Below, in pieces: positions 1 through 39,583 of a DNA stretch of 46,407 nucleotides. The first letter of the stretch is position 1; each line of letters begins with the position of its first letter. Position numbers and translations under genes: made by a program. Where the stretch lies: contig CAYWJO010000027.1 in the NCBI GenBank assembly GCA_964458565.1, forward strand, positions 1-46,407. The letters run 5' to 3'. Source of the stretch: an uncultured archaeon. Lineage in GTDB: Archaea; Asgardarchaeota; Thorarchaeia; Thorarchaeales; Thorarchaeaceae. Below the pieces are notes generated by a model. The model was given only the letters and a program-made list of their open reading frames with translations. It was not told the origin of the DNA and made no database searches.

Positions 1-1842
1 TTCAATACTCAACAATCTACCAAATCCCGTAGCTATAGCATCGACAAGATCTATTGATTCAAGCTCCTCTTCCGAGAATCTCTCTCCGGATATCAATGCT
101 CCAGCATGTTTAGCTAACTCATCTGCAAAAGAAATATCTTCAAGAGATTTGGAAATCGTGATGAGTTTTTCATCACCCAGATTCGAGTCCATACTGAGAT
201 TCTCCAACGCATCAATTGCGGATTTGTGATGAGAAGTTATATTGTCCGCCACAAGCTGTGAATAAGATGCTACACGCTCGCGTACATTTCTTAAACTCAT
301 GTTTTCAATAAGGTACATTCTAGTGAGGACGATAGGGAATAGGAAAACACAAACTGCCATCACTGCTTCACTTACCCACCATCCTGCTGTCCACACTGGG
401 AAGTTTGCTTTTAGGATACCAACGACAAGCCAAATTGTTATTGAACCCGCTCCGATTGAATCGAATGAAAATTCGCCTCCATAAATTCCAGCAAGAAGTA
501 GGATGAAATTCAATACTACAAAGAGTGAGAGGTAGCTTATTGAAAGGAGTAATGCTATACTAATACTACTTTGCGCAAATCCAAATGAGAATTGCGCGTG
601 GATGAACTCTCCAATAAATATCATGAACGCAAATATTCCAACAATCAGATAGTTGAATTTCTTCCTTGATTGATAATCCTCTTCAGTTATCGGTGAAAGC
701 GTTACTCGAGTTGCATAAAATAGGGCGAATAATGAAGCGACCCCTCCGAACATATATGGTAATATCAACCCTGTTTCAATACCAATGAGATATAATATTG
801 AAGAGATTCCAAGTGAGATTTCAGCAATTGACCAGAATGCTAGAGCGAGAACAATTGGATTGCGATATGGCATAATCTTGTATTTGGTTCTAACCGAAAG
901 AGAGTAAGAAAGTACTCCTGCAAAAATCGCTCCACCTATGTGAATCAGTGTGGTTGCTCCAATATCTGGAAGGTAGTCAACTACAACCTGTGACTCGATT
1001 AGTTTTGTGAATAGAAAGGGGAGAACTACAAGTGCACATATCCCAGCAGCTATTCCATATGCAATATCCTCAGATATCCCAATATGTGTGAGGAATGGAT
1101 ATGCTGTTGCAATAATAGCAAAGATAAATGATATCGCCATCAACACAATCGCGAATAACCAAAGCGAGTTAGGTGCTGGCAATATAGTAATTAGAACTAG
1201 TGACGATGCAGCAAGGATAATAAATGAGATACCTAATCTGATTGGATCGTGTGATTCTACGGTTCGATGATGAGTGACTAGGAGTACAGCCGCTGCTAGG
1301 TATGACACAATAGCAAATACTCCAATACAATAACCTCCTATAAGAAAAATCCATTCTTCAATTGGTAAGCGTGTCACATACATGAATAATACAAAAATCG
1401 TTGTTCCCAAGATAACAATAATTGGGGAAGCCCATCTCCTGTTCCAGATTGAGTTTTCTTGGAGTACAGTCCTTTCAAGATAGCTGTAGATGACCATAAT
1501 CACACCTGTTGAAGCAAGTGCGATTAGGTTAAGGAAAATCCCAGCTGTTGTTGCTTGGATAGCTTGGACCTCTGGTGTGAAAACATAATAGATTGATGCG
1601 CCACCAAAGATCATCGACGCATAGCCAGTCCCAGCTGCAAAAATATAATGTGATGGAGTTGGATCAGTTTTTGTCCTATTTAATGCACATACAGTTATCG
1701 TAATTGTGAGAAAAGCAAGAACAGAATAAAATATCGTCGAGGATTCAGGTGTATTCCATGTAGGATTACTTAGGAGGAAGATAACAAGTCCTCCAAACAT
1801 AACCGCAAAGCCTGCGATAATTCTACGATTCTCTAACACCAT
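1..1842 (-). CDS. Multi-pass membrane sensor protein with histidine-kinase-like C-terminal region (3' end runs off the window)
   Basis: Missing from the ORF track because it is truncated. ATG at 1842 (MVLENRRIIAGFAVMFGGLVIFLLS...); the frame was open in every block I checked down to base 1. About 510 aa of hydrophobic helices, then a coiled region SQLVADNITSHHKSAIDALENL and ESIDLVDAI, resembling a HisKA/HATPase junction. Confidence 0.75.
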   Translation of the reverse strand, partial: MVLENRRIIAGFAVMFGGLVIFLLSNPTWNTPESSTIFYSVLAFLTITITVCALNRTKTDPTPSHYIFAAGTGYASMIFGGASIYYVFTPEVQAIQATTAGIFLNLIALASTGVIMVIYSYLERTVLQENSIWNRRWASPIIVILGTTIFVLFMYVTRLPIEEWIFLIGGYCIGVFAIVSYLAAAVLLVTHHRTVESHDPIRLGISFIILAASSLVLITILPAPNSLWLFAIVLMAISFIFAIIATAYPFLTHIGISEDIAYGIAAGICALVVLPFLFTKLIESQVVVDYLPDIGATTLIHIGGAIFAGVLSYSLSVRTKYKIMPYRNPIVLALAFWSIAEISLGISSILYLIGIETGLILPYMFGGVASLFALFYATRVTLSPITEEDYQSRKKFNYLIVGIFAFMIFIGEFIHAQFSFGFAQSSISIALLLSISYLSLFVVLNFILLLAGIYGGEFSFDSIGAGSITIWLVVGILKANFPVWTAGWWVSEAVMAVCVFLFPIVLTRMYLIENMSLRNVRERVASYSQLVADNITSHHKSAIDALENLSMDSNLGDEKLITISKSLEDISFADELAKHAGALISGERFSEEELESIDLVDAIATGFGRLLSIE

Positions 1843-4243: not shown

Positions 4244-5521
4244 TCATTCTGGATATAAATCAAAAACCTGAGTTCCACTAGATTCAGCTGGATGTTCTAG
4301 TAGGTCATTCAGGTATCTTGTTGTACCGGTATCTAATATTTCAGTAATAATCTCAATAAGTTGTCCATCTAGGTTCAAACTGTCTGCTAGCTGTCCCTCT
4401 CTTCTTAATGTATGCAATTCACCAACTCCACTTTCCAGTTTCTTTGCTATTTCATGGAATGGCTGGCTTTTGTTCCACGGAAGTCCTAACATCATCGATT
4501 GATAGAATACAATGTCTAAAAGAACATCAAGTACTCTGTAATTGCTCTCATGGTCTCCTGGGAGAGTATGGCGAATAGAACGGTCTCTTATCCCCACTTT
4601 CTTGCAAATATGATGACCATTCCAAATTACATTACCTCTGAGTTTACTCCAAATGGGTATTCCATATGCATGGTTATTCGAATAAGCCTCCTTGATTCTT
4701 TCATACTGTTCTGGGAATCTCTTCTTTGCGATATTCATGAATTGTTCTTTCTGTCTTCCGGGTTTTAATGTCATTCCACCAAATTGAATAAATTCAGCAC
4801 CAACTTTCTTGGCTTCTTTTGCGAGAGCTGTCATATTCGCTTCATCATCACCAATCCATGGAACGACTGGAGTGCTCATGACTCCACCAAAGAGACCCGC
4901 CTTTCGAATTTCCTTCAAAGCTGCAAATCGTTCTGAGGTTGTGGATGCTTTTGGTTCTAATATTTTTTGAACCTCTTCGTCGTAGGTCGTAATTGTAAAG
5001 ATGACATTCACAAACGCCTCTTTGTGTAATTCCTTGAGAAGGTCGAGATCTCTCAATACAAGGTCTGATTTTGTGAGGATCATTGTAGGCATTCGAAAAT
5101 CTAGGAGAACTTCTAAGACTTTTTGAGTAAGTTTGAATTCACGCTCAGTTGGCTGATAGCTATCTGACACACCTCCACTTGCCCCTATCACAATCTTTCG
5201 AGGTATCTTCATTGCAAGACGTTTTGCATCCTCGGGATCAAGGAATGACCACAGCGTTTCTGTTTCAAGAGAACTCTGTGAAGTGTATCCTAATCTCTTC
5301 AGCTCTTTTCGAAGAATCTTAGGTGCATTCTCTTTAACACGAATGTGTGTGTAGAAATCATCAATACGATAATATTGACAAAACCCATCGCAATATACAC
5401 ATCCATGTTCGCACCCTCTATAGAGATTCATGGAACGATTAGTATGAAACCATCCATCAGCCACTATTGGTTTTGATAGGAGTGTTTTTGCTTGAGTTTT
5501 CTCATATCTCATGTCAGACAC
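4244..5521 (-). CDS. Radical SAM protein, spore-photoproduct-lyase-like (Rv2578c/SplB-type), with C-terminal helix-hairpin-helix-like domain
   Basis: NLYRGCEHGCVYCDG (CxxxCxxC), SDSYQP.E, ILTKSDLVLRDLD; tail IITEILDTG resembles the PolX N-terminal HhH domain. Confidence 0.85.
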   Translation of the reverse strand: MSDMRYEKTQAKTLLSKPIVADGWFHTNRSMNLYRGCEHGCVYCDGFCQYYRIDDFYTHIRVKENAPKILRKELKRLGYTSQSSLETETLWSFLDPEDAKRLAMKIPRKIVIGASGGVSDSYQPTEREFKLTQKVLEVLLDFRMPTMILTKSDLVLRDLDLLKELHKEAFVNVIFTITTYDEEVQKILEPKASTTSERFAALKEIRKAGLFGGVMSTPVVPWIGDDEANMTALAKEAKKVGAEFIQFGGMTLKPGRQKEQFMNIAKKRFPEQYERIKEAYSNNHAYGIPIWSKLRGNVIWNGHHICKKVGIRDRSIRHTLPGDHESNYRVLDVLLDIVFYQSMMLGLPWNKSQPFHEIAKKLESGVGELHTLRREGQLADSLNLDGQLIEIITEILDTGTTRYLNDLLEHPAESSGTQVFDLYPE

Positions 5522-5621
5522 ACCTTAGATTTTGATAAGAGAACACCATAGTATTGATTCTTACTCTCTGTTTAACAGAGCTGTCTAAATATCTTCCATT
5601 GGTGATACTCTGCATGATATT

Positions 5622-6974
5622 TCATTGAATAGCAGATATGGTGTACTCTACAGGCCCTGAAAGTGTGTGTATTTCTAGAGATCTTTTTGCGAGATTGGGG
5701 TCTTTCATTTTACTATTAATGCTCTGAATAATGTATTTTTGAAGCCCAATTGATACATCAGGACAGATTTCACCTTTCAATGATTGCTGAACTCTTCCCC
5801 CAACTTTTCTAATTGCTTCTTCAATCTCTATATATCTAGACAATGATGTCATAGCTTCATTGATGTCCAGTGCATTAAGAATCGTATATCCATATTCCGT
5901 TAACCAGAGATGTCGGAGATCGATACTATTGCTCTTTTTCAAAATTCTCAGGTTCTCAAGTTCTTTTCTTCTGCATTCTAAAATTAATGGAACCAGTTTA
6001 GAAGCTTTTGAAATTTTCAACTTCTCTATATTCATAAAAAGCGTTAATCCTCCTCTTCTCAGTTGATCTGTTAAAAGATGAATTGTGCGATCATAGATGA
6101 CTTCTTTGATTGCAGACATACTCATCCCTAACTCTATGTCTCCGATAATATCATTGAGTGGACCATCATATATTCCTAATTCGGAAATTCCAAGTGCTCT
6201 TAGAATCAATCTCTGTATCGGAAAAAGGCATTCACCCTCACCAATAGAATCGATGTACTTATCCACTACTTTCATGATGAGATTCCAAACACTCAGTTCA
6301 ACACATTGATTTGGCTGTGAATTCCACATTTCCTCATTTTGCTGTATTAAGTGGTAGCTATCTACAACACGACACGAAATATCCTTCAATAGCCTTCTTT
6401 TAGTCCCTATCATTGCTAAAGGTGTTACATCTATTTCATTCAGATTGTTATTCTCCAAGTATAGGTCTTTGAGATTAACGCAGAATAAAAGTGGATTCAA
6501 ATCGATCTTAGTCAATTGATTGCTAGAAACATCTAGCATCTCCAAAGATTTAGCTCCTGCTAATGGCGACAAGTCGATTTCTGTCATGTTATTATTATCA
6601 ATTCGAAATCCTGTGAGGTTTCTGATATCTCTCAATGGTTCTAAATCAATTAGAGTCAATTGGTTAGCTCCAAGATCAAGAAAAACAAGACTTTTGCAGT
6701 TGGAAATGGGGTTTAAATCAACGGATGTCAAAAGATTGAAGCTCAAATTAATGTGCTTCATCTCATGACAACAGGAAATAGTATCCAGTTCAATAGATTT
6801 CAATCCATTATTTTGCAAATACAGTATCTTCAAATCAGGAAAATCTGAGATGAAAGAGAGATCGATATCCCTTATATGATGTCGAGCAAGATTCAGCGAT
6901 TTAATTTCTTCATTCACTAATTTTGATTGTTGTTGATTATCGGTATCAGTATATGTTATCTCAATCATGCCCAT
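5622..6974 (-). CDS. Leucine-rich repeat protein with C-terminal domain of unknown function
   Basis: About 7 repeats of about 24 aa, LxxLxLxxNxLxxIDLxPL. Confidence 0.9.
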   Translation of the reverse strand: MGMIEITYTDTDNQQQSKLVNEEIKSLNLARHHIRDIDLSFISDFPDLKILYLQNNGLKSIELDTISCCHEMKHINLSFNLLTSVDLNPISNCKSLVFLDLGANQLTLIDLEPLRDIRNLTGFRIDNNNMTEIDLSPLAGAKSLEMLDVSSNQLTKIDLNPLLFCVNLKDLYLENNNLNEIDVTPLAMIGTKRRLLKDISCRVVDSYHLIQQNEEMWNSQPNQCVELSVWNLIMKVVDKYIDSIGEGECLFPIQRLILRALGISELGIYDGPLNDIIGDIELGMSMSAIKEVIYDRTIHLLTDQLRRGGLTLFMNIEKLKISKASKLVPLILECRRKELENLRILKKSNSIDLRHLWLTEYGYTILNALDINEAMTSLSRYIEIEEAIRKVGGRVQQSLKGEICPDVSIGLQKYIIQSINSKMKDPNLAKRSLEIHTLSGPVEYTISAIQ

Positions 6975-7270
6975 TTCCCTAATCTACTATACTGATTGCT
7001 ATTGATAAAGACCACAAATTTCTGATAATGCAAGAGTAAATGTTATCGTCACAATTCGTTGTTACGAAAATCAATGTTCACTACCACAAAACCTCGTTTC
7101 ACAAGCTCAAATGACAATAGCTGCATGCATTGTTTGTTTTCACAGAATCCATATCCAACTACAGCAACAGGACAGTTAGTCATCTACTCTACCGAAACGA
7201 CTATAATAGGACAAAAATTGACGCGCTCAATTCTATGTTCATCTTATTGAACAAAAGGGACCGAACGACG

Positions 7271-31477: not shown

Positions 31478-32743
31478 GTGAGTTCGACAGGTAGGAGTGC
31501 CATTGTAATTATCGTAATCGTTTTAATTGGGGTCGGTGTGGGAGCGGGAGCCTACTTTTTCGTCTATTATTTTATTCCAACTTCACCCACAACAACTGCT
31601 TCACCAACCACCACAACTACCGTACCAACAACTTCAACAATTACATACTATTCGTATACTGACTATTGGTCTACAAGCACATCATACCTCTCTTATACAG
31701 ATTATTGGTATTCGACGACCTCATATTGGTACACAGACTATTGGAGTACCTCAACATACTGGACTGAAAATCCATATGATATTGCTATTGTACTCACGAC
31801 TGATGGCGCAGGAGATGAGGGATTCAATGATGGTGTACTTAATGGTGCTTTAAGCGCATGGCAAGACTTCAGATTAGAAATTGATGTAGTTCAACCTACT
31901 CATATCATGGAATATGAAGTATGCCACCGGATCTTTGCTGAACATACCTCATACACAACTCCCTACAAACTAATCATAGGTGTAGGATTTGACCAAGCAG
32001 ATGCTATCATGAGTGTTGCCGAGGATTATCCTAATCAGAACTTTGCTATCGTTGATATGTTTATAGATCCTGCAGAGTATCCTAATGTTGCCTCCTTATT
32101 ATTTTCTGAACACGAGGGATTTGCACTTGTAGGTGCTATTGCCGGTCTCATCACTCAGACTGATTCGATAGGTTTTGTTGGTGGAATGGATATCCCACTC
32201 ATAAACAAATATTTAGCTGGATATGCTTTCGGAGCTAACTATACAAATCCAGGTGTCAATGTAACCTATGCATACACCAACGATTGGGTTGATATTGCAG
32301 CAGGTCAGACTCTTGCTGACGGTATGTATACTCAAGGGATTGATATTATCTTTGCAACTGCATTATATTCAGGCCTTGGAGTTTTTGACAGTTGCAGAAC
32401 CATAATCGAAGATGAAACAAATACCACACCAATTTGGACTATCGGTTATGATACCCCTCAAATGTACTTAGGAACTTCTGATTCTGAAAATCCCTCTGCA
32501 CCAACATTCTGTTTAACTTCAATGATCAAGAGAGTTGATGTCTCAGTCTACAACATTATTAGGGATGTTTTCCTTGGCAACTTCACGGGGGGACTGAAGT
32601 TCTTTAATTTAAGTAATAATGGCGTTGATTATGAAGTTAACAGTAATCTTCTAAAATTGCCCGGTTCAGTAATTTCTGCAGTTGAATCTTTTAAAGCTGA
32701 TATTAAATCTGGTAGTATAAGTGTCCCTGATTCGATATACTGA
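31478..32743 (+). CDS. BMP (PnrA/TmpC-like) ABC substrate-binding protein, divergent paralog, with N-terminal TM anchor and YTDYW repeats
   Basis: GDEGFN, EHEGFALVG, GFVGGMD, SMIKRVD; clear paralog of 32970..34115. Confidence 0.92.
   Translation: MSSTGRSAIVIIVIVLIGVGVGAGAYFFVYYFIPTSPTTTASPTTTTTVPTTSTITYYSYTDYWSTSTSYLSYTDYWYSTTSYWYTDYWSTSTYWTENPYDIAIVLTTDGAGDEGFNDGVLNGALSAWQDFRLEIDVVQPTHIMEYEVCHRIFAEHTSYTTPYKLIIGVGFDQADAIMSVAEDYPNQNFAIVDMFIDPAEYPNVASLLFSEHEGFALVGAIAGLITQTDSIGFVGGMDIPLINKYLAGYAFGANYTNPGVNVTYAYTNDWVDIAAGQTLADGMYTQGIDIIFATALYSGLGVFDSCRTIIEDETNTTPIWTIGYDTPQMYLGTSDSENPSAPTFCLTSMIKRVDVSVYNIIRDVFLGNFTGGLKFFNLSNNGVDYEVNSNLLKLPGSVISAVESFKADIKSGSISVPDSIY
31646..31767 (+). repeat. Coding tandem repeat (Y/L/W)-x-YTDYW-S/Y-ST x3
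   Basis: YSYTDYWSTSTS / LSYTDYWYSTTS / YWYTDYWSTST; codons differ between units. Confidence 0.85.
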
Positions 32744-32969: not shown

Positions 32970-34115
32970 ATGAGCTCATCAAGTAGAGGCATGATGGCAG
33001 CAATCGTGATTATTATTATCGCAGTTGGTGCTGTTGGTGCCTGGATATTGATTGCCAATCCGTTCGCTCCCCCAACAACAACTGAACCAACAACTACAAC
33101 TACAACGACAACAACAACTACAACCACTGGGAATCCAAATCCCTATGATGTAGCAATAGTCTTTGCTACCGGTGGTCTAGGTGATAAGTCGTTTAATGAT
33201 GGTTGTAAGACTGGTGCAGATGAAGCAGTAACGGACTTTGGCATTAGCTTCACATATGTGGAGCCTACAGCAATCACTGAATACGAAGGATACATACGAG
33301 GATATGCTGAACATACAGCTTATGATGATGGATATGATCTCATCATATCGATTGGTTTTGATCAGGCAGAAGGGATAATGGCAGTTGCTGATGATTATCC
33401 AGACCAGCACTTCGCTATTGTCGATATGTTCATTGACCCAGTTAACTACTCAAATGTTGCTTCCCTGCTTTTCAACGAGCATGAGGGTTCAGCACTTGTA
33501 GGTGCTATAGCCGGACTAACAACAGAAACTGATAAAATTGGTTTCGTCGGTGGTGCGGATATTCCACTCATTAACAAATTTTTGGCAGGATACGCATTTG
33601 GTGCGAACTATACCAATACTGGTGTTAATGTAACATACGGATACACCAATGATTGGGTAGATACTGCAGCAGGTCAGACTCTTGCTGATGGTATGTATGC
33701 TCAGGATGCAGACATTATCTTTGCAGCTGCTGGTCGTTCGGGACTTGGTGTCTTTGACAGTTGCAGCTCAATCATCGATGCTGAGACAAATTCAACCAAC
33801 ATCTGGACAATTGGTGTAGACAGTCCACAGATGTACCTTGGTACGGCTGATCCTGAAAACCCAGTTGCGCCAACTTTCATGTTGACATCAATGCTCAAGA
33901 GAGTTGACTTAGCAGTATACCAAATGATCGCTGACACATTTCATGGTAACTTCACAGGTGGTTTGAAGTTCTTCACCCTCGCTAATGGCGGTGTAGACTT
34001 CGAGATAAACGAAGATTTACTTGTTCTACCCCCAACAGTAATTACTGCAGTTGAGGATTTGAAGGCAGCAATCATCAGTGGAACTGTGGTAGTTCCAGAC
34101 GCAATCTACTGGTAA
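32970..34115 (+). CDS. BMP family nucleoside ABC substrate-binding protein
   Basis: Canonical GGLGDKSFN, AAGRSG, IGVDS, SMLKRVD; TM anchor and poly-Thr linker. Confidence 0.95.
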   Translation: MSSSSRGMMAAIVIIIIAVGAVGAWILIANPFAPPTTTEPTTTTTTTTTTTTTGNPNPYDVAIVFATGGLGDKSFNDGCKTGADEAVTDFGISFTYVEPTAITEYEGYIRGYAEHTAYDDGYDLIISIGFDQAEGIMAVADDYPDQHFAIVDMFIDPVNYSNVASLLFNEHEGSALVGAIAGLTTETDKIGFVGGADIPLINKFLAGYAFGANYTNTGVNVTYGYTNDWVDTAAGQTLADGMYAQDADIIFAAAGRSGLGVFDSCSSIIDAETNSTNIWTIGVDSPQMYLGTADPENPVAPTFMLTSMLKRVDLAVYQMIADTFHGNFTGGLKFFTLANGGVDFEINEDLLVLPPTVITAVEDLKAAIISGTVVVPDAIYW

Positions 34116-34245: not shown

Positions 34246-36555
34246 ATGTATGCAGTTGAACTGGAGACTATTTCAAAGACTTTTCCGGGTGATGTTCAAG
34301 CAAACAAGAACATAACATTGCGGGTCAAAGAGGGAGAAGTTCATGGTTTGCTTGGAGAAAATGGTGCTGGGAAGTCCACTCTGATGAATATTCTTTACGG
34401 TCTACTTGATCCAACATCTGGGAAAATAAAAATTCGTGGTGAGGAAGTTACTCTCAAATCACCTGATGACGCTATTTTGCGTGGTGTTGGAATGGTCCAT
34501 CAACACTTCAAACTGATTCCTCCTTTAACCGTTACAGAAAATGTAATCATGGGAATGGAACCTAGAAGGCGAAGAATAAGCCTCTTTACTATTTTCATTA
34601 TGCTTTTGACTTATGTGTATTTGATTGCGATGACATTCACCATTTTCGGAGTTGAGGTTATTGTCGGAGAAGAAACATTGGTTGATTATTCGATTCCAGC
34701 TTTCTATAATGCTATTTTCATCATTCTTACAATATTCACATACTTAACCTATGACCGGATTGGAGGTTGGATGAACAAGTTAGGTTTTGTAGGTCGTTTC
34801 TTTGTCAGATTAGGTTCCCCTCTCAAGAAGGTTATTGATCAACTCGCTCCGATTGGCATAAAAAATGCCCAAGAACGAATTCGTCAAATTGCTATTGAGA
34901 ATGGGCTTGCAATAGATCCAACTGTTAAGATTGCTGATCTATCTGTTGGGTTGCAACAGCGTGTTGAGATCATTAAAACACTATATCGTGAAGCAGAGAT
35001 ATTAATTCTGGATGAGCCAACGAGCGTCCTCACACCTCAAGAAGTGGATGAACTTTTTGAAACTCTCAAAGCATTCAGGGACTCTGGAAAGACAATCATA
35101 CTCATCACTCACAAACTCCGAGAGACCATGGCTTTATGCGATCGAATCAGTGTTCTACGTGATGGTGAGCTTGTTGGTACTGTAAATAGGGATGAAACAT
35201 CACGAGAAGAATTAGCAAAAATGATGGTGGGTCGTCCTGTTGTTTTCACTGTAGAAAAAACTCTTGGACATCCAGGAGAAACCATACTTTCTGTAGATAA
35301 TCTTGTAGTCAGAGATCATCGTGGTCTTATGGCTGTGAAAGGAGTATCTCTTGAAGTAAGGGCTGGAGAAATCTTGGGAATTGCTGGAGTTGAAGGTAAT
35401 GGGCAGACTGAACTTGTTGAAGCACTTACAGGTCTTAACCGACCCATAGTTGGAAGAGTGTGTATTAACGCTGATCCATCAGTTTCACTGAAAAAGGGTT
35501 TCTTAAGCCGACTTTGGGACGAAGATCTGACCAAGTATTTTACTCATGGGCTTATGTTATCATTGTTCTGGTTGTTTGCGTTGTTTTTCTGGGTTCTTTT
35601 AACATTTGCACTGGTGCATACCACATTGTTTATCGGGTTAGCAGTGAGTATCTTTATTCTAGGATACATAACAGGTTCTATCACTATCTCACTTTCAGAT
35701 GCGATATGGAGGATACAATGTAAAGAATCGAGAGGTAGTAAGTTTCTACAAGGCATTATCCAATTTGTAGCACTTGCACTATTGTCTCTACCTTTGGTAT
35801 TCCTTGAACTATACTTCATATACTCCGTATCTTTCGATTTGTTGGATTCTATTATTAGGATGTTAATCCCCTCTATACTGATAGGATTCGTGAGTAAGAG
35901 AATTGCATCTCATTTCCAACTAGAGGATATCGTAATCGTGCAGGCTGACGTAAAACCCTGTGAGGATTGGATGCTTGATATAACAGGTGTTAAGCCAAGA
36001 CAGGTCCGTAGATCCGGTATTAGTTACATTCCAGAAGATCGTCACAAGAGAGGACTCCTTCTCTCATTTACCTTGGAAGAAAATCTTGTTTTAGGTCGTC
36101 ATTATATCAAACCATTTTCCAGAGGTAAAGGACTTCCCATTCTTGAATTAAGTACAATCGAGGATTTATCAGATTCGCTCATCAAAGAATTTTCGATAAA
36201 AACAACTGGCAGCGAGAGTTTTGCCAGTACTCTATCCGGTGGCAATCAACAGAAGGTTGTTGTAGCTAGAGAGATTGCAGCGAAACCCCGATTGTTAATT
36301 GCTGCTCAACCTACGAGAGGTCTGGATGTAGGTGCTACAGAGTTTATCCATAGAACCCTTTTGAGACTACGGGACGAAGGCGTTGCGATTCTTCTTGTTT
36401 CAGCAGAGCTTGATGAAATTCGTTCATTGTCAGACCGGATTGCGGTGATTTATTCTGGTGAAATTGTGGGAATGCGGCAACCGGAGGATACTGATGCTCA
36501 AGAGCTTGGCCTGATGATGGCTGGTGCTTCTGCAGATTCGGAGGTGTCTGTATAA
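34246..36555 (+). CDS. Nucleoside ABC importer ATPase (NupA/YufO-like, two NBDs) with two inserted TM modules
   Basis: GENGAGKST, VHQHF, LSVGLQQRVEI, LDEPT, ITHKL; GVEGNGQ, IPEDR, LSGGNQQK, QPTRGLD; hydrophobic inserts at about aa 107-202 and 409-577. Confidence 0.93.
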   Translation: MYAVELETISKTFPGDVQANKNITLRVKEGEVHGLLGENGAGKSTLMNILYGLLDPTSGKIKIRGEEVTLKSPDDAILRGVGMVHQHFKLIPPLTVTENVIMGMEPRRRRISLFTIFIMLLTYVYLIAMTFTIFGVEVIVGEETLVDYSIPAFYNAIFIILTIFTYLTYDRIGGWMNKLGFVGRFFVRLGSPLKKVIDQLAPIGIKNAQERIRQIAIENGLAIDPTVKIADLSVGLQQRVEIIKTLYREAEILILDEPTSVLTPQEVDELFETLKAFRDSGKTIILITHKLRETMALCDRISVLRDGELVGTVNRDETSREELAKMMVGRPVVFTVEKTLGHPGETILSVDNLVVRDHRGLMAVKGVSLEVRAGEILGIAGVEGNGQTELVEALTGLNRPIVGRVCINADPSVSLKKGFLSRLWDEDLTKYFTHGLMLSLFWLFALFFWVLLTFALVHTTLFIGLAVSIFILGYITGSITISLSDAIWRIQCKESRGSKFLQGIIQFVALALLSLPLVFLELYFIYSVSFDLLDSIIRMLIPSILIGFVSKRIASHFQLEDIVIVQADVKPCEDWMLDITGVKPRQVRRSGISYIPEDRHKRGLLLSFTLEENLVLGRHYIKPFSRGKGLPILELSTIEDLSDSLIKEFSIKTTGSESFASTLSGGNQQKVVVAREIAAKPRLLIAAQPTRGLDVGATEFIHRTLLRLRDEGVAILLVSAELDEIRSLSDRIAVIYSGEIVGMRQPEDTDAQELGLMMAGASADSEVSV

Positions 36556-38627
36556 TGGTTATGGAAGAACACTTACCCAGTTCAGACACAAGGAAGAAGT
36601 CTGACACTCGAGCAAAGAGGATTTTCAAACGTATTCACACTGCTCTAGATAGTTCGACTCCTGAACCAATGAAATCCATTTGGAGAACAATCGTAAGATC
36701 TGATATACCACCTCCAGAGCAAATTATCTATCCGTCTAGAATCGACAAGATTTTTCGTTATTTCGTAACAGGTTCAATGTTCTATCTTCTCATGCTAATC
36801 GTTACTGCATTATATACAGCACTGATAGCACCTGGAATAGGAATTACTTCTCTGTCTATTCTCGTAGCATTATCGGCTATCTTGATAATTTTCTTTGGAC
36901 TAATCAACACTGGACTCACAACACGGTTATGGAAAATTCCACAAGCTGGAAAATTCGGTTATGTTGCGATGCATGGCCTCTCGTTATTGCTTGAGATGAT
37001 TATTTTCTATTTACCACATCTCTTGTTTGTGTTTGACACAACTGATCGTATCATTCTCTTGGTAATAGTGATGGGTAGATTTCTTATTTACGCCTTCACT
37101 TTCGGATATCTAAGTTCAAGAATTGGTCATGGATTTGCCTCTGTTGATGAGGGTGCATTGGGTAGTTTACCCAAATACCTCGGGGATTCTTTTCAGAAGC
37201 TTATTTCTTGGAATTTCTGGAAGACAATCTTATGGGCAGGTGTTTCAGTCTTGCTCGCAATTCTTGTCAGTGCTCTTATTATGGTAACAGCAGGGTACGA
37301 TCCAGGGGTAGCTTTCAGTGCATTGACTACAGGTGCGCTTCGGCAATTTGATCGAGTGTTATTCTATGCTACACCATTAATACTCACTGGTTTGGCAGTG
37401 GCTCTAGCTTTCAAATGTGGTCTCTTCAATATAGGTGCAGAGGGCCAAGTGTATATGGGATCTATTGCAGCTGCTGGACTTGGAGCCCTTTCATGGTGGT
37501 GGTTCACGCCACCAGAATGGTTTGCAGTTTTTCACATTCTGGGATGTTTAGCTGTTGGTGCTTTGTGCGGCTTTGCTTGGGGTCTTCTTCCAGGACTCCT
37601 GAAGTCATACAGAGGAGCGCACGAAGTAGTAACTACAATGATGCTTAGCTACACAGCAGTGATTTTTACTACATGGCTTGCATCGGACTTGTGGAAGGAA
37701 CCTGGTCCATACCAGTATAATGCTCAGACTCCAGAGATTGACCCTACAGCTGTTATAGGGAATTTGTTTGGCTCTGATTATCTAAACGGCGGATTCATAA
37801 TCGCAATCCTCGGTGTCGTATTTGTATGGTTCGTGTTGAATCGAACTGTGCTTGGATATGAGATGCGTGCGGTTGGGATTAACGTAGATGCTGCAGAGTA
37901 TTCAGGAATCAATCCAAAATATAGGATGGCTTTGGCATTAGCTCTTAGTGGAGCACTTGCAGGATTAGCAGGTGCTTCCGAAATACAAGGCCAATATCAT
38001 CGATTCTACAAGGAATGGTCTCCTGGTCTTGGTTGGGATGGAATCACAGTCGCAGTTCTTGGACATAATAATCCTTGGGGGTGTCTTCTGGGTGCTATCT
38101 TTTTTGGATTCCTTAGAGCTGGTGGAAACGCTATGCATCAAGAAGCTCATGTACCCTCTGAAATGGTCGGTGTTATTCAAGGTCTTGTGGTTTTATTTGT
38201 GGCTGCTCCAAGACTGATTCAATGGATGGCAGATCAGGGTATTGATTATGCGAAATGGTTGCGAAATAAACCCACGGTAGCACTTCCACCTTTCATCACG
38301 ATGGTGATGGGTATATTGGCCATGGGTATAAGCTTTTCATTCATTATCTCAGCACCAGAAGAACTTGCTATGCTTGTAGGTCCTCTTTGGATCGCAGCGA
38401 TGCTGAGTCTGATTGCTGCTCTTTCCATGTTGGGTAGGCAAAAACGAGGACCAGATTTGTCAATGCTTGCAGCAATATCATGGGTTATGATTGGTCTTCT
38501 GGGAGTAATGATGAGAGATACTGGTGTGACATTTGTCTTTCTTGGTATGGGTTTCGTCTGGATTGTGATTTGCACGATAGCGCTCTTGATGCTACAGAAG
38601 TATCATGAAATGGAGGTGCAGCAATAA
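36555..38627 (+). CDS. Nucleoside ABC permease (NupB/YufP-like) with N- and C-terminal TM extensions
   Basis: TPLILTGLAVALAF, GLFNIGAEGQ, HEVVTTMML, GYEMRAVG.N..AAEYSGI, GWDGITVA; 690 aa. Confidence 0.93.
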   Translation: MVMEEHLPSSDTRKKSDTRAKRIFKRIHTALDSSTPEPMKSIWRTIVRSDIPPPEQIIYPSRIDKIFRYFVTGSMFYLLMLIVTALYTALIAPGIGITSLSILVALSAILIIFFGLINTGLTTRLWKIPQAGKFGYVAMHGLSLLLEMIIFYLPHLLFVFDTTDRIILLVIVMGRFLIYAFTFGYLSSRIGHGFASVDEGALGSLPKYLGDSFQKLISWNFWKTILWAGVSVLLAILVSALIMVTAGYDPGVAFSALTTGALRQFDRVLFYATPLILTGLAVALAFKCGLFNIGAEGQVYMGSIAAAGLGALSWWWFTPPEWFAVFHILGCLAVGALCGFAWGLLPGLLKSYRGAHEVVTTMMLSYTAVIFTTWLASDLWKEPGPYQYNAQTPEIDPTAVIGNLFGSDYLNGGFIIAILGVVFVWFVLNRTVLGYEMRAVGINVDAAEYSGINPKYRMALALALSGALAGLAGASEIQGQYHRFYKEWSPGLGWDGITVAVLGHNNPWGCLLGAIFFGFLRAGGNAMHQEAHVPSEMVGVIQGLVVLFVAAPRLIQWMADQGIDYAKWLRNKPTVALPPFITMVMGILAMGISFSFIISAPEELAMLVGPLWIAAMLSLIAALSMLGRQKRGPDLSMLAAISWVMIGLLGVMMRDTGVTFVFLGMGFVWIVICTIALLMLQKYHEMEVQQ

Positions 38628-39583
38628 TGCAAGGACTTGATGTCACACTAAACATTATTGGTTGGCTTTTGAAAGCGACATTGGAATCTTCAGTACCACT
38701 GGTTCTGGCTGCACTTGGTGGTATGTTTTCAGAACGCTCAGGCGTGGTGAATATTGGTCTTGAAGGAATGATGTTACTTGCTGCAGCTTCTGGAGCAGCG
38801 GGCAGTTTTCTCACAGGTAATCCATGGATAGGTCTTCTATTTGGAGTTGGTGCGGGTGCAGGATTAGCAGTTATCCATGCAGTAATTTCCGTGAAATACA
38901 AAGGTAATCACATTGTGTCTGGTACAGGAATTTTACTCTTTGCAGCGGGTGCAAGTACGTTGATGCTACAGGTAATCTGGGGTCGACCTGGTACCTCTGA
39001 TAGAGTACCAACAATTCCAGATGTAGGATTCTCTGGAGCTTCAGATGTTCCTCTCCTTGGTCCTGTGCTTGAGGGAGTATCTCCAATTGTTTACGGTATG
39101 TTTGTAATAGCAATTATCTGTTGGTATGTCCTTTACAAGACACCCTTTGGATTACGCTTGCGAGCTGCAGGAGAAGACCCAAGCACACTTGATACAGCTG
39201 GTGTGAATGTTGAAACTATGAGATATATTGGAGTAATTTTGAGTGGTGTGCTTGCAGGACTAGCTGGAGCTTATCTATCTATATCTTTCCAACCTCGATT
39301 TAGTAAAGGTATGACTTCTGGTCGGGGTTTCATCGCGCTCGCAGCTTTGATATTTGGAAATTGGACTCCGATTGGCTGTCTTTTAGCTGGAATCTTCTTT
39401 GGCTTCCTTGATGGCCTTACCTTCGCAGTGCAGATTATCCCAGAGCTATCATTTCTGCAACCATATAACAACTTCATTTTCATGTTGCCGTTTGTGCTTG
39501 TTGTAGTTGCTCTAGCAGTCATTCGGAAGTCTGTGCCACCAAAAGCAGTAGGTGTACCGTATGAAAAAGAGACGAAAGGATGA
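38627..39583 (+). CDS. Nucleoside ABC permease (NupC/YufQ-like)
   Basis: SERSGVVNIGLEGMM, TPFGLRLRAAGEDP, GRGFIALAALIFGNW, PKAVGVPY. Confidence 0.95.
   Translation: MQGLDVTLNIIGWLLKATLESSVPLVLAALGGMFSERSGVVNIGLEGMMLLAAASGAAGSFLTGNPWIGLLFGVGAGAGLAVIHAVISVKYKGNHIVSGTGILLFAAGASTLMLQVIWGRPGTSDRVPTIPDVGFSGASDVPLLGPVLEGVSPIVYGMFVIAIICWYVLYKTPFGLRLRAAGEDPSTLDTAGVNVETMRYIGVILSGVLAGLAGAYLSISFQPRFSKGMTSGRGFIALAALIFGNWTPIGCLLAGIFFGFLDGLTFAVQIIPELSFLQPYNNFIFMLPFVLVVVALAVIRKSVPPKAVGVPYEKETKG

Follow-up and report, generated by a model that had tools for sequence, protein, structure and literature searches.

The ATPase of a Bmp/PnrA-type importer (CUT2, nucleoside-like) encoded by an uncultured archaeon of the Thorarchaeaceae (Asgardarchaeota) carries predicted transmembrane (TM) helices inside both of its nucleotide-binding domains (NBDs), and we propose an integral membrane architecture for it, in which a two-helix hairpin with an amphipathic helix, nested in a loop of NBD1, and a four-helix bundle, nested in a beta-hairpin of NBD2, would pack on an enlarged permease. 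We put the probability of this explanation as a whole at roughly 0.6; the anatomy of the protein is directly observed in its sequence, and the function is inferred.

The ATPase and its operon

The window, by which we mean the entire stretch of DNA analysed (46,407 nucleotides, positions 1 to 46,407 of the forward strand of contig CAYWJO010000027.1, assembly GCA_964458565.1), contains the genes expected of a CUT2/Bmp-type transporter, namely Bmp binding proteins, the ATPase (P0001) and two BPD_transp_2 permeases (Table 1). The ATPase stop and the start of permease 1 (P0121) share one nucleotide (TAATG), and the start of permease 2 overlaps the stop of permease 1, again by a single nucleotide. 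The binding protein encoded nearest the ATPase has, as judged from hydropathy and sequence, a TM anchor at its N-terminus and a stalk rich in Thr; its paralog, by sequence, also has a TM anchor, with a stalk rich in Thr, Tyr and Trp. Permease 1 has about four extra TM helices at either end of its BPD_transp_2 core, according to hydropathy; in an alignment of five loci, the C-terminal four-helix extension is common to all, and the N-terminal extension is found only in permease 1 of the window.

Table 1. Positions of the importer genes and of the modules nested in or added to their products
Feature	Position (nt)	Strand	Length or residues	Basis
Second Bmp-family substrate-binding protein (paralog)	31478..32743	+		Pfam Bmp, 155.7 bits
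Bmp/PnrA-family substrate-binding protein	32970..34115	+		Pfam Bmp, 170 bits
Tandem-NBD ABC importer ATPase (P0001)	34246..36555	+	769 aa	Open ORF; Pfam ABC_tran, 158 bits
Insert 1, catalytic NBD1	34564..34851	+	aa 107-202 (96 aa)	Absent from insert-free relatives in alignment
Insert 2, degenerate NBD2	35470..35976	+	aa 409-577 (169 aa)	Four-TM module; alignments
Permease 1 (P0121)	36555..38627	+	690 aa	Pfam BPD_transp_2 over aa 266-549
N-terminal four-TM module, permease 1	36744..37148	+	aa ~64-198	Second copy of the insert 2 module
Permease 2	38627..39583	+	318 aa	BPD_transp_2

The initial annotation, made from the sequence alone, had recognized an ABC importer ATPase of 769 residues, and this identification is borne out by the open reading frame, the ABC_tran matches and the Bmp and BPD_transp_2 neighbours. 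The Pfam match (PF00005, cut-off 25 bits) is split into three stretches, and the CUT2-type NCBIfam models also align in three stretches along the protein. The best of the NCBIfam models are CUT2/B6-type, every one scoring under its cut-off; the equivalog model for the putative B6 ATPase (NF047930), for example, gives 417.8 bits against a cut-off of 670. As the binding protein and both permeases likewise fall far below the B6 equivalog cut-offs, no substrate can be assigned.

The motif set of NBD1 is complete (GENGAGKS of Walker A, Q86 of the Q-loop, the signature LSVGLQQR, ILILDEPT of Walker B with its catalytic Glu, and H289 of the H-loop), and to this extent the earlier statement that all catalytic motifs are intact can stand. 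It cannot be extended to NBD2, in which three catalytic residues are missing, namely the lysine of Walker A (GVEGNGQT), the Asp-Glu of Walker B (LLIAAQPT) and the histidine of the H-loop (VSAE). The degenerate motifs GNGQ, AAQPT, and SAE are kept in all 83 aligned family members, insert-bearing or not, and the degeneracy is thus the norm of the family and not decay. The known Bmp/PnrA nucleoside importers (CUT2, TC 3.A.1.2; NupA/YufO-like) likewise combine two NBDs in one chain, a catalytic NBD1 with a degenerate NBD2 featuring GNGQ and AAQPTRG. However, their ATPases are soluble and about 500 residues long, as stated in the initial annotation and as found here both for the characterized NupA/YufO-type proteins and for 136 of the 147 diverse representatives that we classified, while P0001 exceeds this length and has six predicted TM helices within its NBDs, and its partner P0121 has about eight helices more than the permeases of these systems. 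The two inserts account for 265 residues of extra length, and 504 residues are left once both are removed, as had been noted.

Predicted structure, topology and constraint of the inserts

In alignments with relatives that lack inserts, insert 1 comes immediately after TENVIMGMEP, as originally proposed. The loop at this site follows the post-Q-loop helix of NBD1 and lies in the helical subdomain; the equivalent loop of MalK cross-links to the EAA coupling loops. Both hydropathy (Kyte-Doolittle peaks at about aa 109-142 and 145-168) and an AlphaFold2 model agree with the composition first described, of two hydrophobic helices and a basic amphipathic helix. In the order of the chain, the insert consists of an RRRR stretch, a TM helix at 113-133, starting about five residues beyond the NBD1 helix, an acidic outer loop with a beta-hairpin at 136-147, a second TM helix at 149-178, and the amphipathic helix at 181-200, with pLDDT values of 63-88 for the helices.

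Insert 2 lies between GRVCIN and DIT in the alignment, splitting the beta-hairpin downstream of the Walker A helix in NBD2, again as first read. Its four hydrophobic helices are supported by hydropathy (peaks at about aa 432-484 and 499-550) and by AlphaFold2, which models them at 427-455, 460-488, 496-524, and 532-556, with pLDDT values of 75-93 inside the whole protein and of 79.4 when the insert is folded alone. The bundle is attached by two linkers, each of about 20 residues, several motifs in the insert and its base are conserved in the alignment, and Cys406 and Cys572, which flank the insert, are both confined to the 12 insert 2 bearers among the 83 aligned members. The model of the ATPase alone, calculated from the 83-sequence alignment (mean pLDDT 88.4, pTM 0.75), folds both inserts as long helices of 21-30 residues, and their hydropathy peaks reach 2.3-2.4.

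Could these segments be missing from the mature protein, as an assembly artefact, an intron or an intein? Each insert has a length exactly divisible by three, and the cysteines flanking insert 2 give it a superficial resemblance to an intein. However, the same inserts are present at the same positions in three further proteins (P0002-P0004, 59-72% identity) from independent assemblies originating from ENA, JGI, and NCBI, and comparison with the orthologous gene at locus L002 reveals a frame kept across 769 codons, with one single-codon indel, and selection at the amino acid level, pN being 0.354 against a pS of 0.818 in insert 1, and 0.367 against 0.784 in insert 2. No flanking repeats or marks of mobile elements were found around the inserts. 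As to an intein specifically, there is no Hint or other Pfam match, the junction reads VKP/C, with Lys-Pro in place of the usual His-Asn before Cys572, and the model predicts helices of TM length, folded confidently in place. The existence of free-standing protein homologs of insert 2 (see below) also speaks against removal. Altogether, the artefact, splicing and intein readings can be excluded as far as sequence comparison goes, and we give this possibility hardly any credence.

Topology signals are apparent in both inserts. Across 38 homologs with a two-helix insert 1, the mean number of Lys and Arg residues is 2.7 and 3.1 in the flanks versus 0.16 in the loop between the helices, and across homologs of insert 2 there are 0-1 such residues in the outer loops and 2-6 in the central loop. 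An even number of helices per insert, two and four, would leave both halves of each NBD in the cytoplasm. Insertion into the membrane is thus a prediction, made from hydropathy, the positive-inside pattern, AlphaFold2, constraint, and the homology of insert 2, and it agrees with the integral membrane ATPase of the initial annotation; on these grounds we regard an integral membrane ATPase as very probable.

Whether the inserts matter to the transporter is a separate question. They change at about four times the rate of the core (pN 0.35-0.37 versus 0.09), and synonymous sites are saturated (pS about 0.8); the identity of insert 1 across subclades is just 8-25%. One interpretation is that the inserts are tolerated passengers, hydrophobic hairpins and a duplicated small membrane protein accumulated by constructive neutral evolution in membrane-facing loops that are mechanically neutral; they would be maintained by constraint against misfolding and would bring the transporter no benefit. 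Such rapid divergence, with little sequence common to the subclades, is what this interpretation would predict, and it is further favoured by the variable size of the inserts, which have two or four helices and can reach hundreds of residues in Chloroflexota, by a patchy distribution among close relatives that demands more than one gain or loss on the core tree, and by the existence of insert-free operons that are otherwise alike. What it does not explain well is that both inserts are kept by orthologs at 71-72% overall identity, with synonymous sites saturated, that motifs are conserved in insert 2 and at its base, that the ATPase and the adjoining permease have each kept a copy of one module, and that two domains of life have recruited different modules into these loops. 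We consider the passenger interpretation improbable.

We favour instead an explanation in which the nested helices would hold the ATPase in the membrane permanently and provide lateral contacts to the enlarged permease with its approximately eight extra helices, stabilizing the assembly; the ATP sites would remain unobstructed, because both insert loops are situated away from the NBD-NBD interface. The lengths of the linkers, of about five residues for insert 1 and twice about 20 for insert 2, would fit such an anchoring geometry, provided that both inserts leave the NBDs on the side facing the permease. A link to the permease is suggested by the module of insert 2, which also heads permease 1; this permease is translationally coupled to the ATPase and carries the four-helix C-terminal extension as well. 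Docking to the permease and the stabilizing role are inferences, and, given an integral membrane ATPase, we lean only slightly toward a role in anchoring or assembly. A prediction of the complex between insert 2 and residues 55-215 of P0121 scored 0.00, the fold of the partner itself being uncertain, and counts neither for nor against docking. Separately, as regards a specific interface, the fast divergence of the inserts suits a loose structural constraint equally well.

Origin of the four-helix module and distribution of the inserts

The two inserts and the permease extensions gave only noise in Pfam searches at E values up to 10. The module that makes up insert 2 can nevertheless be traced. 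First, it has a second copy at the N-terminus of permease 1: the two share 30% identity over 149 residues (BLASTP, E 2e-4), the insert 2 profile aligns with the permease module over 133 columns (hhalign probability 88.5, E 2.7e-6), and a profile of the module recovers the permease copy at E 4e-45. Second, a six-frame search of related genomes with the insert 2 profile uncovered open frames of about 180-335 residues, at E 1e-13 to 1e-21, that represent free-standing forms. These were missed by a word-indexed protein search with the same profile, which found no proteins of 96-342 residues, a false negative when set against the six-frame result; the same kind of search with the N-terminal extension of permease 1 matched only itself. 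Of 60 genomes of the archaeal family, 34 contain free-standing frames, and a further tally gives 32 of 43 in the family but only 2 of 157 among other genomes of the phylum; the frames are often in tandem, and one is present in the source genome. Four aligned members keep all four helices along with the motifs Y..HG, G..N, W, HG, and G[YWF]. A CXXC zinc-ribbon tail is present at the C-terminus in three of the four examined, one of them (L101:4748-5530) matching an MJ0042-type finger at 28.2 bits, above the cut-off of 20.9, and two others giving weaker zinc-ribbon matches; insert 2 is without the ribbon, and Cys572 is the sole aligned cysteine that it retains. No transporters were found beside the free-standing relatives at the loci examined. 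By these profile matches, insert 2 is an autonomous membrane module, homologous to free-standing four-TM proteins, and on our reading it was captured from this family, which is found almost only in the archaeal family of the source organism, with another copy grafted onto the N-terminus of the adjoining permease.

Other attempts to identify the module were less successful. The best match among solved structures is 5mlz_A, the four-TM domain of an archaeal dolichyl-phosphate mannose synthase (Z 5.5, rmsd 4.2, 122 aligned residues), which is within the noise for helical bundles. In the ESM Atlas, a search by shape pointed to an archaeal hypothetical protein of 142 residues (TM-scores 0.62/0.77), a lead only, and a search by features with insert 2 returned nothing usable. 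An internal duplication of two plus two helices is supported by a weak signal only (28% identity over 60 residues, E 0.037). RDD (PF06271) was considered as the identity of insert 2 and rejected, with no match at E up to 10 and an hhalign probability of 0.2 against the RDD insert of the Chloroflexota protein P0140.

A different role for the nested modules is suggested by some of these features: instead of acting as anchors, the paired four-TM modules of NBD2 and the permease would form a separate membrane unit that might sense, gate or conduct an ion, a second ligand or the like, coupled to the degenerate, regulatory-type ATP site. In other asymmetric ABC proteins the non-catalytic NBD is a regulatory site, and it is in the non-catalytic NBD2 that insert 2 is located. 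The polar positions that are invariant (two HG pairs, Asn, and Trp) lie in or at the ends of helices, the cysteine pair at the base of the module is restricted to insert bearers, the free-standing family from which the module descends presumably has a role of its own, and an RDD domain occupies the same site in Chloroflexota relatives, one RDD protein having been reported to be an antiporter, Na+(Li+,K+)/H+ (PMC5996927). Yet the module belongs to no known functional family in Pfam or NCBIfam, its structural matches being weak or by shape only, none of the free-standing relatives examined has a transporter gene beside it, the insert has lost the zinc ribbon that free-standing forms carry, and most relatives do without insert 2. 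An independent function thus appears unlikely, and anchoring remains the reading that we prefer.

As to how widespread the inserts are, a crude hydropathy count of the 120 closest relatives, of which all the named ones are Asgard, detected TM inserts at one or both sites in 69: 50 have an insert in NBD1 only, nine in NBD2 only, and ten at both sites, and 51 have none. The helix number per insert is two or four in most relatives. The initial annotation had stated that its proposal would be refuted if the inserts were already common in NupA homologs; this is true narrowly, for the closest relatives and for the Chloroflexota genomes described below, but not for the diverse representatives, most of which are soluble. 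Insert 2 falls in two separated clades of the core tree (a quick IQ-TREE run with SH-aLRT support), and transfer or repeated loss is thus needed. At one locus, L005, an insert-free ATPase is encoded in the same operon and with the same C-terminally extended permease, so the inserts are not required for this type of transporter.

One further set of examples comes from outside the Archaea. An ATPase of this family annotated as Chloroflexia (P0126, 690 aa) carries TM inserts, and so do the giant proteins P0133, P0140, P0155, and P0178 (1077-1356 aa), all at the same NBD1 loop and NBD2 hairpin. The locus of P0126 also features a Bmp protein and enlarged permeases (426 and 736 aa), as in the thorarchaeal operon. 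Relatives of P0155 are found in Chloroflexota genomes, of which at least 16 have matches of about 1050-1430 residues, the size of insert-bearing forms. The NBD2 insert is RDD (39-53 bits) in P0133, P0140, and P0155. These inserts are unrelated in sequence to those of P0001, and far larger. No permease or Bmp gene adjoins at the loci of P0133 and P0155; a BPD_transp_2 permease hidden in the nested helices of P0155 was considered and is unsupported (hhalign probability 0.2). Judged from the sequences alone, the same two loops have taken up unrelated TM modules in Asgard archaea and in Chloroflexota, repeatedly.

Nested helices among known ABC architectures

In the usual description, the NBDs of ABC transporters are soluble 'engines', attached to the membrane domains either without a covalent link or by end-to-end fusion. 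End-to-end fusions exist in this very family (P0167, P0208, and P0262), likewise combining the ATPase and membrane helices in one chain, but in these a complete BPD_transp_2 permease follows an intact ATPase, whereas the helices of P0001 interrupt the NBD folds. P0001 itself was considered as such a fusion and this was rejected, since it has no BPD_transp_2 match and its helices lie within the NBDs. Insertions into an NBD are not unprecedented, as the lineage-specific regulatory insertion of CFTR, in the antiparallel beta subdomain of NBD1, is tolerated by the fold; it is short, disordered, and soluble, in contrast to the hydrophobic four-helix bundle of insert 2. Structural matches to the AlphaFold2 model cover NBD cores only: the top Foldseek match, 8s7v_K, is also a tandem ABC ATPase, and OppD (8j5q_D) and DppD (8wda_D) of M. 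tuberculosis are among the best (E 1e-21 to 1e-22, TM-score by target 0.62-0.71). Nested NBD helices are described in none of the 50 best-ranked solved chains. A 2026 survey distinguishes five ABC classes (forward and reverse, each either full or half, plus NBD-only), and no nested class is among them (PMC13257379). The initial annotation knew of no such architecture, and our search of full-text open-access papers and bioRxiv likewise turned up nothing on TM helices within an NBD, nor a paper on this layout.

A bolder proposal, going beyond anchoring, is that TM modules nested in NBD loops constitute an unrecognized architectural class of ABC proteins. In this case, the two four-TM modules would pair into an extra membrane unit, giving a regulated or ion-coupled importer function, and in the single-gene giants of Chloroflexota, at the far end of the same series, the nested helices would themselves form the pathway for translocation. 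We find this joint proposal speculative, and rather unlikely to hold in full.

In conclusion, the repeated insertion of unrelated modules marks both loops as membrane-proximal and mechanically neutral, and NBD loops so tolerant may be useful for engineering and for reading the mechanics of ABC proteins. The case also offers a traceable domain capture, in which, on our reading, a small membrane protein entered the loop of an enzyme and was also grafted onto the neighbouring subunit. Finally, if the predicted topology is right, the plain label 'ABC transporter ATP-binding protein' that the insert-bearing ATPases carry conceals their membrane nature.

Family, operon and catalytic sites of the ATPase

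The gene for the importer ATPase P0001 belongs to an operon in which two Bmp binding proteins precede the ATPase, permease 1 (P0121) and permease 2, the last three genes being linked by 1-nt start/stop overlaps. By its motifs, tandem layout and operon, P0001 is assigned to the Bmp/CUT2 importer ATPase family, and it fails the "soluble, about 500 aa" character of that family. ABC_tran of Pfam matches it in three stretches, and the NCBIfam models for CUT2-type tandem ATPases align along it (the top ones being a putative B6 transporter ATPase and AraG) well under their equivalog cut-offs, and thus no substrate is assigned. Both Bmp paralogs possess an N-terminal transmembrane (TM) helix anchor and long Thr-rich stalks, and the one at 31478-32743 additionally possesses Tyr/Trp/Asp-rich YTDYW-like units. 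The insert-free ATPase P0024 lies at a locus where gene calling divides the second permease into two genes, one of 236 aa and one of 88 aa (L005:9122-10095), and this permease may be split or frameshifted.

The initial annotation considered all catalytic motifs intact. This holds for the first nucleotide-binding domain (NBD1), which possesses the full canonical set, but not for NBD2, in which the lysine of Walker A (GVEGNGQT), the Asp-Glu pair of Walker B (LLIAAQPT) and the histidine of the H-loop (VSAE) are all missing. These losses are common to all of the 83 aligned family members, insert-bearing or insert-free, so that the family possesses one consensus and one degenerate ATP site; the catalytic NBD hosts insert 1, and the degenerate NBD hosts insert 2.

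Features of the operon, predicted elements of the two inserts, and free-standing relatives of insert 2
Feature	Location	Strand	Description
Bmp binding protein	31478-32743		operon with ATPase
Bmp binding protein	32970-34115		operon with ATPase
ATPase P0001	34246-36555	+	uninterrupted ORF, 769 aa
Permease 1 (P0121)	36555-38627		690 aa
Permease 2	38627-39583		318 aa
Insert 1 of P0001	aa 113-133, 136-147, 149-178, 181-200		helix, beta-hairpin, helix, amphipathic helix; AlphaFold2, pLDDT 63-88
Insert 2 of P0001	aa 427-455, 460-488, 496-524, 532-556		four helices, plus short helices in both linkers; AlphaFold2, pLDDT 75-93
Free-standing 4-TM proteins	L101:4026-4595, 4748-5533, 6251-7006		genome G046

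Two constrained sets of TM-type helices nested in two NBD loops

Alignment with insert-free relatives places insert 1 (residues 107-202) directly after TENVIMGMEP in NBD1 and insert 2 (residues 409-577) between GRVCIN and DIT in NBD2, leaving a core of 504 aa, and so reproduces exactly the positions first proposed; the insert-bearing frame was likewise confirmed to be open. Independent assemblies from ENA, JGI and NCBI supply the closest database relatives, labelled, where a name is given, as Thorarchaeota, Promethearchaeota or Lokiarchaeota, and both inserts are present at identical positions in P0002 and P0003 (71-72% identity) and in P0004 (59%). When P0001 is compared with the orthologous gene on the JGI contig L002, the frame is preserved, with one single-codon indel, and synonymous sites are saturated (pS 0.76-0.82), while non-synonymous change is 0.354 in insert 1 and 0.367 in insert 2 versus 0.091 in the core; the inserts are under purifying selection, which is weaker than on the core. 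No flanking repeats were detected beside either insert, nor did an intein or any other Pfam domain match within them. An artefact, an intron or an intein is thus barely credible as the source of the inserts, given their occurrence in independent assemblies, the selection on their codons and the lack of an intein match. Each of the two helices of insert 1 contains IFI(M/I)(L/I)L, encoded by a 17-nt direct repeat of 88% identity (window 34589-34605 and 34712-34728), which may reflect internal duplication, or chance among hydrophobic codons.

Hydropathy peaks within the inserts reach 2.3-2.4, and AlphaFold2, supplied with an 83-sequence alignment, returned a model of P0001 with mean pLDDT of 88.4 and pTM of 0.75. 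The charge pattern of both inserts obeys the positive-inside rule: in the two-helix type of insert 1 (38 homologs), mean Lys+Arg counts are 2.7 and 3.1 in the flanks versus 0.16 in the inter-helix loop, and in insert 2 (12 sequences) individual counts are 0-1 in the two outer loops versus 2-6 in the central loop. By a crude hydropathy count, helices per insert are mostly two or four, and the rare odd counts are read as threshold effects, as near-identical relatives of the same sequences count even. In sum, two even-numbered, constrained sets of TM-type helices are nested in two NBD loops.

The initial annotation knew of no described counterpart of this architecture. Within the Asgard clade concerned, the nested layout is common. 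The same crude count, applied to the 120 closest 90%-identity clusters, finds TM peaks at the NBD1 site only in 50, at the NBD2 site only in nine, at both in 10 and at neither in 51. Across 201 species genomes sampled from the phylum, a homolog is present in 36 of the 43 that belong to the window's own family, and in about 10 of these the match runs through insert 1, in open frames of 601-618 aa. Insert 2 is found in this sample only in the window's genome and in G194, there on a truncated contig. A quick maximum-likelihood tree of the cores nests the both-insert clade (P0001-P0004) among bearers of insert 1 and separates from it a clade with insert 2 only (P0005-P0016), whose sister is insert-free, a pattern that would require several gains, losses or transfers. 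Between subclades insert 1 retains only 8-25% identity, with an identical layout. Such fast evolution, along with the fact that insert-free relatives share the operon and the extended permease, calls for caution over an anchoring role; both would also fit inserts that are tolerated passengers of no benefit, a possibility that we consider rather unlikely.

Origin of insert 2 and of the permease module

Permease 1 possesses about eight extra helices of its own. Its N-terminal extension resembles insert 2 (BLASTP, 30% identity over 149 aa, E 2e-4), and a profile of 12 insert-2 sequences aligns with residues 64-199 of P0121 with conserved positions retained (hhalign probability 88.5, E 2.7e-6). 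Among five loci aligned, only the window's permease possesses this module; the permease beside P0003 matches the P0121 leader over its first 62 residues, suggesting that this lineage probably carries it too. A C-terminal 4-TM extension is common to all five aligned permeases. In P0121 it spans about four TM helices (window 38277-38594, residues about 575-680), occurs also at the locus with the insert-free ATPase, and, in the five Asgard loci compared, is unlike both the N-terminal module and insert 2.

A word-indexed search uncovered no free-standing relatives of insert 2; a six-frame profile search of related genomes uncovered them in 34 of 60 family genomes (E down to 1e-21), as open frames of about 180-335 aa, frequently in tandem, including one in the window's own genome (contig C9, L100:4602-5306, +). 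A broader profile detects the 4-TM module in 32 of the 43 genomes from the window's family versus two of 157 elsewhere in the phylum, with each genome yielding one to five matches; of the three in G000, one is the copy in the ATPase and another that in the permease. The free-standing family corresponds to no Pfam family. All four aligned members possess four helices and conserved Y..HG, G..N, W, HG and G[YWF] positions, and three end in a CXXC tail, which in one exceeds the cut-off for an MJ0042-type zinc finger (28.2 versus 20.9 bits), with weaker zinc-ribbon matches in the other two. Cys572 is the sole aligned cysteine that insert 2 retains, and its pairing with Cys406 is found only in the 12 insert-2 bearers. 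Some module copies lie within far longer open frames (G134:C9:61504-61950, G221:C24:3579-4010, G120:C32:30271-31398), including frames of 941 and 957 aa, each with one in-frame TGA, and a 434-aa frame in which two modules lie in tandem; such copies may represent additional fusions.

One of the nested sets thus descends from a free-standing membrane protein, and the adjacent permease bears a second copy of it. By this homology, insert 2 is a copy, captured by the ATPase, of a small and autonomous membrane protein almost confined to this archaeal family, which lends independent support to its being a membrane domain. That the paired 4-TM modules have a separate function, in sensing, gating or ion-linked activity, remains conceivable, if unlikely. 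Together with the predicted helices, the positive-inside charges and the constrained codons, the free-standing homologs support the proposal of an integral-membrane importer ATPase, and P0001 is very probably such a protein, as predicted without model coordinates.

The same loops in other lineages and a possible tether

From the 50%-identity representatives retrieved, we sorted 147 (P0122-P0268) according to size and hydropathy. Most (136) possess fewer than two hydropathy peaks, mostly at about 500 aa; one (P0123) is a partial protein of the 768-aa type; and three are end-to-end ATPase-permease fusions, whose layout differs from that of P0001. P0001 is not such a fusion. The remaining seven (P0124, P0126, P0133, P0140, P0149, P0155, P0178) possess inserts rich in TM helices, located in the NBD1 loop, in the NBD2 hairpin or in both, the NBD2 insert of P0133, P0140 and P0155 being a Pfam RDD domain (39-53 bits versus a 24.1-bit cut-off). 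That unrelated TM modules recur at these two sites is the strongest comparative argument for both loops facing the membrane and tolerating insertions. One example is P0126, whose annotation names a Chloroflexia bacterium as its source and whose Bmp operon includes permeases of 426 and 736 aa. Another is P0155, for which a scan of species genomes detected matches about 1050-1430 aa long in no fewer than 16 genomes of Chloroflexota, including Anaerolineae, Aggregatilineales, Thermoflexus and Ardenticatenia. Neither a permease nor a Bmp gene adjoins P0133 or P0155, and thus the nested helices of these two might themselves form the membrane domain. In this family, Chloroflexota ATPases attain lengths of 1077-1356 aa (e.g., P0155, L007:7001-10879; P0133, L009:6001-10071; L010-L025), with many TM helices nested at the two loops, RDD at the hairpin, and probably a third TM insertion site in NBD2. 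In the distant relative P0169 (648 aa; cluster of 54 members), about 140 extra non-hydrophobic residues occupy the hairpin site, which may be a general insertion hot spot in this ATPase family.

Solved structures among the top matches (e.g., Mtb OppD 8j5q_D and DppD 8wda_D) align with the NBD cores of P0001 only, and a sequence search of PDB chains returned no CUT2-type tandem importer ATPase. In the open-access papers searched, TM helices inside an NBD are nowhere described, which does not exclude a description elsewhere; a 2026 survey (PMC13257379) recognizes five ABC architectural classes only, none of them nested.

Both insert sites lie apart from the NBD-NBD interface. TM1 of insert 1 starts about five residues past the post-Q-loop helix, and the equivalent MalK loop forms cross-links with the EAA coupling loops. 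Insert 2 is held on two linkers of about 20 residues each, which would let it reach the membrane from its peripheral hairpin, and these lengths agree with a tether. We assign a probability of about 0.6 to the whole statement, that of an integral membrane ATPase anchored by its inserts, the anchoring being inferred. The nested helices would insert in the membrane with both NBD halves remaining cytoplasmic, and may pack against the permease, thus providing this importer with a permanent tether and an additional NBD-TMD interface.
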